NCBI GenBank assembly: GCA_017937125.1
Contig: JAGBEH010000005.1
Coordinates: 34,837-98,836, forward strand
DNA: 64,000 nt
Reading direction: 5' to 3'
Origin: Alistipes sp.
GTDB taxonomy: Bacteria > Bacteroidota > Bacteroidia > Bacteroidales > Rikenellaceae
Of this stretch, positions 33,885 through 37,877 are shown piece after piece. The position numbers and the translations under genes are program-made. How positions within the stretch are numbered: position 1 is the first letter of the stretch; every line of letters starts with the position of its first letter. The notes under the pieces are model-generated. The model did no database searches, had not been told where the DNA came from, and was given only the letters and a program-made list of their open reading frames with translations.

Positions 33885-34557
33885 CCCGCGTACCGCGGAA
33901 TGGTACGCCGAACGCACGGATTATCTGGCGGAGTTCCTGTCGCCCGAGCGTGCGGAGACTTTGCGCCGTGCCGTCTCGATGCGCACGCATTATATGACCG
34001 TTATGGCCGAAAACACCTTTCATCCCCATAATGCGAGCGCGCTGGTACGCCATTGCGAAGCGTTCGGCGTGCAGAAGATGCATACCGTGGAATCGTTGTG
34101 CCGCTTCGACCCGAGCACGAATATAGTGCGCGGCACCGACAAGTGGGTCGATATAGAACGTCATGCGTCCACTGCCGACGCTTTGGCCGCCCTGCGCCGC
34201 GACGGGTATCGCATAGTCGCGACCACGCCCCACCGCGAAAGCTGTACGCCCGAGACGTTCGATGTCGGCAGGGGACGGTTCGCCTTGGTTTTCGGCACGG
34301 AGCACGCGGGCATCACCGACGAGGTGACGGCTTCGGCCGACGAGTTCCTGCGCATACCTATGTGCGGGATGGTCGAGAGCCTGAACGTCTCGGCTTCGGC
34401 CGCCATATTGATATATATGCTTTCGGAGCGTATGCGCCGCGAGGTCGGGGAGTGGCGGCTCTCGGAGACGGAACGGGCGGAGATACTCTACCGCTGGAGC
34501 CGCGAATGCGTTAAGGATTCGGAACTCATACTGAAAAGAAAATACGGAGAGATATGA
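33859..34557 (+). CDS. SpoU/TrmH-family tRNA/rRNA 2'-O-methyltransferase
   Basis: HPHNASALVRHCEAFG, FGTEHAG and IPMCGMVESLNVSASAA. Confidence 0.92.
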   Translation: MRMKSIGNSPRTAEWYAERTDYLAEFLSPERAETLRRAVSMRTHYMTVMAENTFHPHNASALVRHCEAFGVQKMHTVESLCRFDPSTNIVRGTDKWVDIERHASTADALAALRRDGYRIVATTPHRESCTPETFDVGRGRFALVFGTEHAGITDEVTASADEFLRIPMCGMVESLNVSASAAILIYMLSERMRREVGEWRLSETERAEILYRWSRECVKDSELILKRKYGEI

Positions 34558-37500
34558 AAAAGATCGTACTTGCAGTCGTTTTGTCGCTGACGGCTTTGGC
34601 GGCATCGGCACAGATCAGGCATTATGTAACCGCGGGCGAGACGCTTTCGAGCATAGCGCGTAAATACGGGGTTACGGTAGAGCAGATCAAAAGCTGGAAT
34701 ACTCCCGAAAATCTGGCTTTGTACAATAAAGGGACGCATGTGCTGACGATTTATCCCGCAAATCGTACGACATCGAGTACGTCGTCGGGAACCGTTTCGG
34801 GCGGCTCGCAACACGCATCGTTCTTTCCCGTTTTCGGAATGACGCTGGGCGAGACGACCCGCGCCGAGGCGGCGAAAATGGGATACTGCTCTACGAGCAA
34901 GAACTACCCCGAGTGCTACGATGTCGGTACGTGGGATTTCTGGGACCACGACAAGGACGGCGTGTTCGAGCAGCTTTATCTGACTTATACGGACGAATTC
35001 CCGCAGCAGTGGCTCGACATAGGCTGCTCGTGGGCGTTGTCGTACAATCAGTGGCAGGCGCTTTTCCGTCGGCTGGGGTATACCGTCACCGTTACCGAGA
35101 GCCCGAAAACGAAACCGTACGGCGGCCGCAATACGCTCTCCGCAAAATTCACGGCTACCGACCCGTCTACAGGTTTGCAGTTCCGCCTGGATTTCAACTA
35201 CGGCAACGATCACGGCGAGGGCTATACGGTCGATTCGCAGAAGACGCTTTACAGCATAACGGCAGCTGCCACGCGCGGCTCGGTGCGCAATGCGGGCGGC
35301 TCTTCATCCGGAGCGGACAGCCGATCGACTGCGTCGGCAGCGACATCGGGCGAATGCGCTGCGTTTTTCCCCGTTTTAGGACTTACATTGGGCGAAACTA
35401 CCGTCTCGGAGGCCAAATCTATGGGCTGCACCAACTCCAATCCCAAATATCCCAACCAGTATTACCTGAAATACGACGGCACGAAAAAGTATATCATAAC
35501 CGACAGTAACAAGGACGGTATTTTGGACAAAATGCTCGTGTCGTCTACGGACGATATGCCTGTGGCGTGGAGTCAGCAAGGTTTCGACTGGTCGTTGTCG
35601 TACAACCAGTGGCAGGCGCTGTTGCGCCGTCTGGGCTTCGCGATAAACGTAACGGAGTCGCCGCGCACGGAGGTATTCAGCGGCCGCAATACGTTGAAGG
35701 CGCGCTTCAAGGCGACGCATCCGTCGAACGGATTGGTCTTCGATTTGGAGTTCGAGTACAACAACCGCAACGGCGAAGGATACTCCGTAACGTCGAAAAA
35801 TACCGTGCGTTGGATCTTCGCGCGTGCTGCTCGCGGCTCGTCTTCCGCGCAAAGTGCATCGTATGCGGGCGGTTCCGCGGCAGGGGTGTCCGCTGCGACG
35901 ACGGCAGTCGCCGAGCAGCCTCGAAACCCCGTACTGACGGCCGTGGCGGCTTCGAGCGAGGGCTTGCGCCCCGTGACGCAGAGTACGTCGCCGACGGTAT
36001 GCTGTTTCGCCGATGACTATGACAATATCGTTATGGCGGGCAAAAGCTTCTATCTGCCCAAGTCGTATGAGACGGACAATGCCCGTGCGCTCTATAATTT
36101 CCGCAACGGCGTGGCGGTGGTCGCCGAACGGGAGAACAAGTGGGGTGTCATCGACCAGAGCGGCAACACGGTCATCCCGTTCGAATACCGCGTAAATTCC
36201 TATTGCGGGTTCTACGAGAACGAGTATTTCGTCTTTCTGGGCGGTTTCGGGTCGCCCGGGAACGGTTACAAGACGTTCTATGTACTCGATATGGCCGGCG
36301 ACGTGCTTTTCGAATGCAAGAATACCTACGACAGCAAGCCCATCGCCAAGATAAAGGCGTTCTATGACAAGAAGGGTAAGGCCATCATCGCCGCCAATCG
36401 CCGTGCGGGCAAATACGAGGCCGTGACGGGGAGGATAACGGCGGCCGTGCAGTCTACGGCACGGCAGTCCGAGCAGCTGCGTCTGGCTCAGGCCGCCGAA
36501 GCCGAGCGCCAGCGTCTGTTGCGCGAGGAGCGGGAGCGTCTTGAAAATTCGTTTATGGCCTATGCTCGCCATTATGTCGAGGAGAAAATCAACAAGTGGC
36601 AGATCAAGGGCGAGTACGAGAAGACTTCCGACTGGCGCCGCCGCGTAAACGAAACCACACGCCGCAACAAGGTGCGCGAACTGACGCGCGAAGCCGAGGA
36701 GAACTTCATCGCCGAAAGGTCGCGCGACATCGCTGCCGATTACTCGATAGACGGCAGCTATGATGCCGACAACGAAACCTACTGCATAAATTCCGAGCGG
36801 TTCGGCAAACTGCTGGTGCGCGTGCCGGTGTCTTACGCGAAACAGTTCCGCGACCAATGGCCGAGCATCCGCAAGACCCCGACCTATTTCATCGACGGCG
36901 ACCGTCTGGCATTGGCAGGCGTATCCTTCCGTATGAAGGACAACCGCGAATTCCGCTACAGTAACCAGGCGTCGCTCAACTACTCGACCACGCAGGTGGA
37001 GTATAATTTCAACCCCATAGAGCTGGAGGCTGCCGATGCCCCGACCGTGGCGGGGCGGCAGAACATATCGACGACCAAACTCACGGTCGGCAACCGTGCG
37101 GATATAGATATGACGGTGCCGCAGAATGCGACGGACAATACATCCACATTCGCCGTAATCATCGCCAACGAGAACTATGCGAACGCGGGAGATGTGGAGT
37201 TCGCACTCAATGACGGCCGCTCGTTCGGGGAGTATTGCCGCAAGACGCTCGGCATACCCGAGAAGAACATCAACATCTATGACAATGCGACGTTCGTCGG
37301 GATACGTTCTGCGCTTAATCTGCTCGGGAAGCTCGTGGACACCTATGGCGAGAAGTCGAACGTCATTTTTTACTATGCGGGGCACGGCATTCCCGACGAG
37401 AAGAGCAGCGATTCGTACCTGCTGCCTGTGGACGGCATACCTTCGGATATGTCTACGTGCTACAGTCTCGACGGAATCTACCGCCGTCTGGGCGAGATGA

Positions 37501-37877
37501 AAGCCGAGCGTGTGGTGGTGTTTATGGATGCCTGCTTCTCGGGTTCGCAGCGCAACGGCGAGATCATAGCTGCTGCGCGCGGTGTGGCGGTGAAGGCCAA
37601 AAGTGCGCAGCCGTATGGAAATATGGTCGTCTTCTCGGCCGCACAGGGCGATGAGACGGCATACCCCTACAAGGAGAAGTCGCACGGACTGTTTACCTAT
37701 TACCTGCTCAAGAAGCTGCAGCATACGCGCGGCGAAGCGACGCTCGGCGAGCTGTCGGATTTCGTGACCAAAAACGTGAAGATGGAGTCGCTGCAAACCA
37801 ACAAGCGTTCGCAGACGCCGTGCATACGCGTGTCGTCTGTGCTCGGCGACGGCTGGCGGAATATGAAATTGAAGTGA
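34554..37877 (+). CDS. Secreted modular protein: LysM, 2x unknown repeat domain, WG repeat, helical region and C14 caspase-like protease
   Basis: Signal peptide, HYVTAGETLSSIARKYGVTVEQIKSWN (LysM), an internal duplication, KWGVIDQSGNTVIPFEY, YYAGHG (His944) and DACFSG (Cys994). Confidence 0.9.
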   Translation: MKKIVLAVVLSLTALAASAQIRHYVTAGETLSSIARKYGVTVEQIKSWNTPENLALYNKGTHVLTIYPANRTTSSTSSGTVSGGSQHASFFPVFGMTLGETTRAEAAKMGYCSTSKNYPECYDVGTWDFWDHDKDGVFEQLYLTYTDEFPQQWLDIGCSWALSYNQWQALFRRLGYTVTVTESPKTKPYGGRNTLSAKFTATDPSTGLQFRLDFNYGNDHGEGYTVDSQKTLYSITAAATRGSVRNAGGSSSGADSRSTASAATSGECAAFFPVLGLTLGETTVSEAKSMGCTNSNPKYPNQYYLKYDGTKKYIITDSNKDGILDKMLVSSTDDMPVAWSQQGFDWSLSYNQWQALLRRLGFAINVTESPRTEVFSGRNTLKARFKATHPSNGLVFDLEFEYNNRNGEGYSVTSKNTVRWIFARAARGSSSAQSASYAGGSAAGVSAATTAVAEQPRNPVLTAVAASSEGLRPVTQSTSPTVCCFADDYDNIVMAGKSFYLPKSYETDNARALYNFRNGVAVVAERENKWGVIDQSGNTVIPFEYRVNSYCGFYENEYFVFLGGFGSPGNGYKTFYVLDMAGDVLFECKNTYDSKPIAKIKAFYDKKGKAIIAANRRAGKYEAVTGRITAAVQSTARQSEQLRLAQAAEAERQRLLREERERLENSFMAYARHYVEEKINKWQIKGEYEKTSDWRRRVNETTRRNKVRELTREAEENFIAERSRDIAADYSIDGSYDADNETYCINSERFGKLLVRVPVSYAKQFRDQWPSIRKTPTYFIDGDRLALAGVSFRMKDNREFRYSNQASLNYSTTQVEYNFNPIELEAADAPTVAGRQNISTTKLTVGNRADIDMTVPQNATDNTSTFAVIIANENYANAGDVEFALNDGRSFGEYCRKTLGIPEKNINIYDNATFVGIRSALNLLGKLVDTYGEKSNVIFYYAGHGIPDEKSSDSYLLPVDGIPSDMSTCYSLDGIYRRLGEMKAERVVVFMDACFSGSQRNGEIIAAARGVAVKAKSAQPYGNMVVFSAAQGDETAYPYKEKSHGLFTYYLLKKLQHTRGEATLGELSDFVTKNVKMESLQTNKRSQTPCIRVSSVLGDGWRNMKLK

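Follow-up and report, generated by a model that had tools for sequence, protein, structure and literature searches.

A predicted exported, LysM-bearing C14 protease of Alistipes sp. and its large Bacteroidales caspase family

Relation to described caspase homologues

Research on bacterial caspase homologues has dealt almost exclusively with cytoplasmic effectors of death or defence, and census work had already recorded prokaryotic members with signal peptides or extracellular domains (PMC3501461). Here we analysed a stretch of 64,000 nucleotides from Alistipes sp. (the window, in whose coordinates positions are given unless a contig or another locus is named), in which a gene at 34554-37877 on the + strand encodes an intact caspase-fold protease that, judged by its sequence, is clearly exported. 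The open reading frame (ORF) is genuine according to the ORF list and its translation, starts with ATG and specifies a product of 1107 residues, P0001, in which all residues are numbered. This protein comprises a Sec signal peptide, a LysM domain, two copies of an unannotated domain of ~155 residues (working name DomX), a degenerate WG-repeat region, a charged helix, a module to which we gave the working name MID (residues 665-847) and a C-terminal C14 caspase domain (Table 1). What is new is the exported, LysM-tethered and DomX-bearing C14 protease; what is known is the caspase family to which it belongs and the labels that annotation pipelines have given to its members.

The closest described proteins are those of a Bacteroidales family annotated as 'caspase family' or 'WG repeat-containing protein' (HIW52720.1 and MDR1595102.1, the latter from a Prevotellaceae metagenome-assembled genome, MAG), with which P0001 shares the C-terminal ~440 residues at 40-67% identity, the YYAGHG and DACFSG motifs, a signal peptide and the lack of a type IX secretion system (T9SS) tail. 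It departs from the family members listed, other than its near-identical relatives, in possessing a LysM domain, and two DomX copies replace most of the WG repeats. With the orthocaspases, such as MaOC1 from Microcystis aeruginosa (MEROPS C14B), P0001 has in common the caspase domain, the His/Cys dyad, the D-x-C motif and two conserved Asp residues; however, the characterised orthocaspases are cytoplasmic and act in stress or toxin-antitoxin control (PMC7935541), whilst P0001 is predicted to be exported, displays DACF rather than DxCH or DxCR and carries the additional LysM, DomX and MID modules. Type I-III metacaspases are distinguished by a separate p10 domain, Ca2+ sites and a DxCH motif; P0001 has DACF here too, and its best fold match is the p10-less MALT1. 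Of the PDB structures compared, the modelled caspase domain resembles this paracaspase (3v4o, 3uo8) most closely, and we take the YYAGHG motif of MALT1 to be identical to that of P0001. MALT1 nevertheless works in signalling as a protease of the eukaryotic cytosol and contains death and Ig domains, unlike P0001, and neither MALT1 nor the metacaspases in the PDB gave a sequence match to P0001 by HMMER: the likeness seen in the model is a resemblance of fold, not membership.

The caspases associated with EACC1 (NF047832) provide the best NCBIfam caspase model (E 4.8e-16), but the score of 58.9 bits compares to a cut-off of 140, and, unlike in the EACC1-associated conflict systems, neither an EACC1 module nor an NTPase is encoded near the P0001 gene, whose product moreover bears an export signal. 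LysM-bearing cell-wall enzymes (MltD and endopeptidases of the NlpD/LytE type) are similar in that an N-terminal signal and LysM tether the catalytic domain, but the caspase-fold catalysis of P0001 is unrelated to that of muramidases, NlpC/P60 or M23 enzymes. Literature searches returned no paper dealing with the MID-caspase family, with caspases that carry WG repeats or with bacterial caspases of the periplasm. The initial annotation had regarded this locus as the best candidate for an undescribed system in the window; what we find instead is a single gene without partner, the C-terminal half of whose product belongs to a large and already labelled family. As no partners are linked to it, no new system is defined, and the gene represents one more architecture of that family.

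Catalytic half and N-terminal modules

Residues 866-1095 match Peptidase_C14 (PF00656) with 74.5 bits against a cut-off of 21.4. YYAGHG occupies residues 940-945 and provides His944, whilst DACFSG at residues 992-997 provides Cys994. Across an alignment of 30 homologues with 46-67% identity to P0001, His944, Cys994, Asp887 and Asp992 are invariant and a GDET motif (Gly1032, Asp1033, Glu1034, Thr1035) is conserved to at least 90%; the C14 caspase-like domain with an intact His944/Cys994 dyad that had been read from the translation is thus confirmed, including its positions. AlphaFold2 modelling of residues 645-1107 (mean predicted local distance difference test, pLDDT, 82.4; predicted template modelling score, pTM, 0.58) gave a region of four helices (646-723), a beta domain that includes one helix (730-817), a linker of low confidence and the caspase domain. 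When this model was compared to the PDB using Foldseek, 235 matches at E<=1e-3 were obtained, all of them caspase-fold: MALT1 paracaspase was the top match (3v4o_A, E 2.4e-13, template modelling (TM) score 0.74 on the target, ~20% identity), followed by Arabidopsis metacaspases 9 and 4, GSU0716 and the animal caspases 7, 9 and 3. The BFVD viral library yielded giant-virus caspases only, and a sequence profile searched against the PDB found solely a marginal caspase match, again GSU0716 (E 0.31). The comparison of each domain by hidden Markov model (HMM) and Foldseek, which the initial annotation had proposed, therefore identified LysM and C14, placed the caspase nearest to MALT1 and returned no match for DomX.

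MID is made up of a helical bundle (667-723), the beta domain (730-817) and the linker, and gave no match in Pfam, NCBIfam or the PDB sequences; the Foldseek matches of the 645-1107 model, being all caspase-fold, assign no fold to it. The half of the protein that is shared within the family begins at approximately residue 665 with 'ENSFxxYAxxYVExKINxWQxKGEYEKTxDW' and runs to the last residue; within the MID linker, an otherwise variable stretch, a G-x-Q-x-I motif is invariant. A basic residue of the MID-caspase linker was considered as a general autoprocessing site and rejected, because P0031, P0050 and P0059 have no K/R there and only G-x-Q-x-I is conserved. In one genome (G049; C1:280685-281173, 283243-284127) MID is found alone in a frame of 815 residues, with the match spanning query residues 24-184 of the C-module, and a separate caspase gene follows 2 kb downstream; MID can therefore exist apart from the protease.

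All characterised C14 enzymes other than the animal caspases cut after Arg or Lys via an acidic specificity pocket (PMC5756287), in which two Asp residues are conserved among orthocaspases (PMC6426788). In P0001, Asp887 is situated in the loop after the first strand and Asp992 two residues before the catalytic Cys (D-x-C). We take these residues to be equivalent to Asp95 and Asp211 of TbMCA2 and to Asp365 and Asp462 of MALT1. Because both are invariant and would correspond to the two pocket Asp of C14 relatives, we predict that P0001 would cleave after Arg or Lys; the DACF motif itself lies outside both the DxCH and the DxCR classes.

The N-terminus, MKKIVLAVVLSLTALAASA/QIRH, exhibits a KK n-region, a hydrophobic core and A-S-A ahead of Gln20, which is the pattern of Sec export and cleavage by signal peptidase I (SPI), and Gln at +1 is typical of Bacteroidetes SPI substrates (Q-rule, PMC5837995). 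No lipobox is present, since the first Cys of the protein is residue 112; no T9SS C-terminal domain (CTD) model of Pfam or NCBIfam matched at E<=1, and the conserved caspase domain continues to the last residue of the protein. The reading of a Sec signal accompanied by neither lipobox nor T9SS tail thus stands. The protein contains no instance of D[ST][AILVMT], the motif for O-glycosylation in Bacteroidota. Following the signal, residues 23-53 match LysM (PF01476) at 36.5 bits, above the cut-off of 20.9, and the LysM chains 4uz2, 8i2e and 1e0g of the PDB match residues 15-79 with E-values of 1.5e-5 to 5e-2; the LysM reported earlier is hence present, and its binding to peptidoglycan is predicted. 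Among the 120 family matches listed, LysM occurs only in P0001 and the near-identical P0002 and P0003; P0002, of 1107 residues and 99% identical to P0001, is found in other assemblies. The linkers between the modules are rich in S, A, T and G, which together account for 62-72% of their residues. As to the single WG repeat of the initial annotation, Pfam gives one match to WG_beta_rep (PF14903; residues 530-545), which at 21.4 bits is under the cut-off of 25.6, whilst residues ~500-640 are homologous to proteins with bona fide WG repeats (including P0006 and P0007): the repeat is weakly confirmed through this homology, and the region is therefore considered a degenerate remnant.

The two DomX copies (residues 88-243 and 269-429) are 50% identical in self-comparison (E 2e-56), as expected from the earlier description of a duplicated domain of ~155 residues. 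In a full HMMER scan covering 1.84 billion cluster representatives, DomX was detected in 385 clusters, of which 288 matched at E<=1e-10. Copy number and accompanying domains were surveyed in the best 149 of the 385 clusters, with P0003 set aside: one copy is present in 104 proteins, two in 39, three in 5 and four in 1, a caspase domain is found in 3 of these 149 other DomX proteins, and exported members also carry Fib_succ_major, PEGA, FGE-sulfatase, Lcl_C or Sel1 domains. The AlphaFold2 model of DomX is confident (pLDDT 93.3, pTM 0.87). No Pfam match was obtained for DomX, a profile built from 20 sequences found nothing among the PDB sequences at E<=10, and Foldseek comparison of the model with the PDB gave nothing better than E 0.07 and TM 0.32. 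An assignment to the PsbP/Mog1 fold was rejected, the best Foldseek matches (PsbP, DcrB, SciW) lying at E 0.07 and TM <=0.32. Its confident fold, its wide spread and the lack of Pfam, PDB-sequence and PDB-fold matches mark DomX as an undescribed alpha+beta domain. Trp, Tyr and Phe positions are conserved in it and no invariant residue looks catalytic; the aromatic positions are compatible with a putative binding role. Three DomX proteins that have no signal peptide (P0144, P0198, P0225) combine the domain with a ResIII/DEAD helicase, the 'methylase-associated' MTaX1 and BspA-type LRR_5, which suggests a cytoplasmic and possibly restriction- or conflict-related use. DomX is found nowhere else in the source genome. 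In another assembly, P0003 is ~98.5% identical to P0001 but lacks residues 248-427 (window 35295-35834), an in-frame deletion of exactly one DomX-plus-linker unit; copy number at the N-terminus therefore varies even within the species.

Family distribution and genomic setting

When 5.8 billion proteins were searched, significant matches to P0001 were obtained from more than 2200 protein clusters. Besides three close relatives, these share only the C-terminal ~440 residues (MID and caspase) with it, and their N-termini are mostly a signal peptide followed by WG repeats, others having BspA-type leucine-rich repeats (LRR), Sel1 repeats, CARDB or a membrane anchor. The N-terminal shuffling among homologues with the same C-terminal module, for which the initial annotation had advised a survey, is hence observed with WG, BspA-LRR, Sel1, transmembrane and CARDB segments, and MID and caspase may form a constant cassette that is retargeted by exchange of N-terminal domains within the family.

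Scanning of one genome per species revealed at least 450 loci with relatives, 80 of which, at species level, were surveyed for taxonomy and neighbours. Nearly all 80 belong to Bacteroidales/Bacteroidia of the gut, the rumen or the environment, among them Prevotellaceae (with Segatella copri), Muribaculaceae, Paludibacteraceae, Bacteroidaceae, Alistipes and Odoribacter. Three loci (L057, L066, L079) are from MAGs named Clostridium sp. or Faecalimonas sp. (Firmicutes), whilst every other named record is of Bacteroidales/Bacteroidia; the three could reflect either binning contamination or genuine transfer outside the phylum. In 69 of 201 evenly drawn genomes of the order a family match at E<=1e-8 is present, with up to eight or more copies. 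The 80 loci hold 89 caspase genes (ORF survey, L014-L093), 83 with complete N-termini; MID is encoded in 40 of the 89, and 78 of the 83 complete proteins have a signal-like start.

The most frequent neighbour is a gene for a DUF4384-like protein of ~280-310 residues, which adjoins 33 of the 89 caspase genes; a small gene for a barrel-like protein adjoins 5, and 10 stand in tandem caspase pairs. In five loci (L024, L044, L059, L064, L077) the paired genes for exported caspases are 9-86 nucleotides apart and differ in their N-terminal regions. The DUF4384-like protein is exported, matches DUF4384 weakly and is encoded up- or downstream, often 0-30 nucleotides from the caspase gene (for example L002:2-925, in the source genome C12:34720-35646, and L010:8186-9064); it is a candidate for a dedicated partner or substrate of the relatives. 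In some of the Csx30 proteins that serve the type III-E protease as substrates, DUF4384 likewise forms the C-terminal domain. The small exported protein is encoded directly upstream of WG-MID-caspase orthologues in several species and shows an N-terminal 'LKDGTEIxGxI' motif and a barrel-like C-terminal half (for example L003:3406-4320 on the - strand, in the source genome C9:49193-50107, and L007:5324-5983); it has no Pfam family.

The source genome, a 2.16-Mb MAG of 12 contigs, encodes four family members including P0001. Two of the paralogues combine a signal peptide, WG repeats, MID and caspase, one lying by a DUF4384-like gene and one by a barrel-like gene, whereas the third combines a signal peptide, WG repeats, CARDB and caspase. 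The sole DUF4384-like gene of this genome adjoins the paralogue on contig 12, and the proteins flanking that paralogue have no Pfam matches. A further exported protein of 529 residues with a long Pro/Ala-rich segment is encoded 13 nucleotides after the contig-12 caspase gene (L114:4576-6162; source genome C12:37575-39164), and the Cys...His pattern in its C-terminal part may resemble transglutaminase-like cores.

At the P0001 locus itself, the ATG of the caspase gene shares bases with the TGA stop of the SpoU/TrmH gene (ATGA at 34554-34557, read from the sequence). This overlap with trmH, the 1107-residue ORF and the domain order, all claimed at the outset, were borne out by the ORF list, Pfam and the sequence. 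A scan of the + strand for sigma-70 promoters and terminators gave nothing above shuffle expectation. Searches by tblastn found trmH directly followed by the aminotransferase gene in 13 of 19 congener species and a caspase gene at that site in none of the 19, and any match to P0001 elsewhere in the genome in 2 of these congeners only; the caspase gene is hence an insertion confined to one sub-clade, in keeping with the claim that it interrupts a housekeeping run. The orthologue P0004 is 57% identical to P0001, occurs in the same order ispG-WbqC-GH2-CvpA-rsgA-trmH-caspase and has no LysM; its cluster includes HIW52720.1, annotated as 'caspase family protein', from Candidatus Alistipes excrementipullorum. 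P0001 thus appears, from these comparisons, to be a lineage-specific paralogue of an Alistipes-like sub-clade. A compositional test of recent horizontal acquisition gave no signal (GC content 0.57 for the gene and 0.566 for the window).

Table 1. Features of the caspase gene and its immediate neighbours in the window
Feature	Position	Strand	Basis and remarks
SpoU/TrmH-family methyltransferase gene	33859-34557	+	Pfam SpoU_methylase E 5.6e-32; upstream neighbour
Whole caspase gene, LysM-DomX-DomX-WG-MID-caspase (P0001)	34554-37877	+	ORF and translation
Sec/SPI signal peptide, residues 1-19	34554-34610	+	Sequence read; predicted cleavage ASA/Q
LysM domain, residues ~21-66	34614-34751	+	Pfam and PDB LysM chains
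DomX copy 1, residues 88-243	34815-35282	+	Internal repeat; unannotated alpha+beta domain
DomX copy 2, residues 269-429	35358-35840	+	Internal repeat
Degenerate WG-repeat region, residues ~481-625	35994-36428	+	One recognisable repeat; alignment to P0006, P0007
Charged helix, Q/E/R-rich, residues ~630-666	36441-36551	+	Sequence; AlphaFold2 helix 646-664 (model residues 2-20)
MID module, residues 665-847	36546-37094	+	MID HMM; AlphaFold2 model; conservation
Peptidase_C14 domain, residues 850-1107	37101-37874	+	Pfam, Foldseek, invariant residues
His944 codon CAC; Cys994 codon TGC	37383-37385; 37533-37535	+	Catalytic dyad
Asp887 codon; Asp992 codon	37212-37214; 37527-37529	+	Predicted S1 acidic residues
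Class-III aminotransferase gene	37913-39124	+	Pfam Aminotran_3 E 7.9e-93; 35 nucleotides after caspase stop

Proposed role and alternatives

With moderate confidence we propose that P0001 is a soluble, Sec-exported and most probably periplasmic C14 cysteine endopeptidase that is docked by its LysM, is specific for Arg/Lys and belongs to a modular family; it would be of the metacaspase-like/orthocaspase type, with paracaspase as its nearest structural neighbour. According to this proposal, signal peptidase I would remove residues 1-19 and LysM would hold the mature protein on the peptidoglycan layer; the two DomX copies and the degenerate WG region, on flexible S/A-rich linkers, would serve as extra modules for recognition of ligands or substrates, with MID and the caspase domain as the constant catalytic end. 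The His944/Cys994 dyad with its acidic S1 pocket (Asp887, Asp992) would then cut envelope proteins after Arg or Lys.

Several points weigh against this proposal. The functions of the family are predicted from sequence and modelled structure; localisation is read from sequence only, with packaging into outer-membrane vesicles or release possible, and LysM can bind other glycans containing N-acetylglucosamine (GlcNAc). The placement of Asp887 and Asp992 in the S1 pocket is a prediction from motif position and from the corresponding TbMCA2 and MALT1 residues. As the pTM of 0.58 leaves the inter-domain arrangement of the model uncertain, MID could occlude the active site in the manner of a zymogen. 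In addition, no candidate substrate is encoded beside the P0001 gene, in contrast to the many relatives that have a DUF4384-like neighbour.

A serious alternative, albeit an unlikely one, is that P0001 is a released or vesicle-borne effector that targets other cells, host proteins or dietary proteins in nutrition, competition or host interaction, with LysM engaging foreign peptidoglycan or GlcNAc glycans. The occurrence of the family almost only in MAGs and isolates of gut, rumen and oral-type Bacteroidales, including Segatella copri, fits such a role, as do paralogues bearing the BspA-type LRR and WG repeats that characterise surface and adhesion proteins, and other clan-CD proteases of the Bacteroidota (gingipains, C11 enzymes) are secreted effectors. 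Nevertheless, proteins are known to reach the surface of Bacteroidota in two ways, by T9SS or as lipoproteins, and P0001 has neither T9SS CTD nor lipobox; the small periplasmic or outer-membrane partner genes of many relatives suggest a role internal to the envelope.

Somewhat less probable, in our estimation, is extracytoplasmic surveillance or defence, in which LysM, DomX and WG would sense envelope damage, phage, lysins or type VI secretion system (T6SS) effectors and the caspase would signal or self-destruct. The distribution is indeed patchy and lineage-specific, with no congener carrying the gene at this site and few having the family at all, and the family shows multi-copy paralogy with 'sensor-like' repeat N-termini that shuffle rapidly, all of which is typical of conflict systems; DomX recurs in the conflict-looking cytoplasmic proteins with helicase, MTaX1 or BspA-LRR, and DUF4384, the commonest neighbour of the relatives, in some Csx30 substrates. 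PADLOC also reports a match, but to its generic 'caspase' model only (E 1.2e-9): this reflects the shared caspase domain, as no system partners are nearby, and the EACC1-type model falls below its cut-off, as described above. The gene moreover sits within an rsgA-trmH-(caspase)-aminotransferase housekeeping operon of average GC content, and in Pfam searches its neighbourhood (rsgA, trmH, aminotransferase) contains no defence gene, NTPase or effector; no DUF4384-like gene adjoins it, and CHASE2 is absent from the source genome. Envelope-damage sensing or defence, as advanced in the initial annotation, consequently finds nothing specific at this locus: no island, NTPase, CHASE2 or DUF4384 partner.

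That P0001 is a catalytically silent scaffold or binding protein is very unlikely: pseudo-orthocaspases are common in bacteria (PMC6426788), but pseudo-variants typically replace the dyad, whereas here the dyad, both Asp residues and the flanking motifs are invariant in 30 divergent homologues. Least likely of all is a transpeptidase or sortase-like ligation of a cleaved envelope protein to an acceptor such as LysM-held peptidoglycan, which might be imagined by analogy to the clan-CD fold of legumain, glycosylphosphatidylinositol (GPI) transamidase and PorU, to the proximity of LysM to peptidoglycan and to the invariant G-x-Q-x-I of the variable linker; we know of no C14 enzyme that acts in this way, and no acceptor or substrate gene is linked to the P0001 gene.

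A more far-reaching and quite improbable possibility is that P0001 is a peptidoglycan-docked sentinel, in which recognition by DomX and WG of a foreign or damage ligand in the periplasm (candidates being phage lysis or entry proteins, T6SS effectors and muropeptides) would activate cleavage of envelope targets after Arg or Lys, as an ATP-independent periplasmic counterpart of caspase immunity. If true, gut Bacteroidales would run caspase-type proteolytic switches outside the cytoplasm, and DomX would be a new ligand-sensing fold that P0001 shares with cytoplasmic helicase/MTaX1 conflict proteins.

The family is present in about a third of the sampled Bacteroidales genomes, among them gut taxa that are abundant in humans and animals, for example Segatella copri. 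Within it, P0001 is a useful entry point, as its LysM suggests an obvious binding target and DomX is a widespread domain with neither a Pfam entry nor a structural relative. Identification of the substrates would give access to an aspect of envelope proteolysis in gut bacteria that is so far unexplored.

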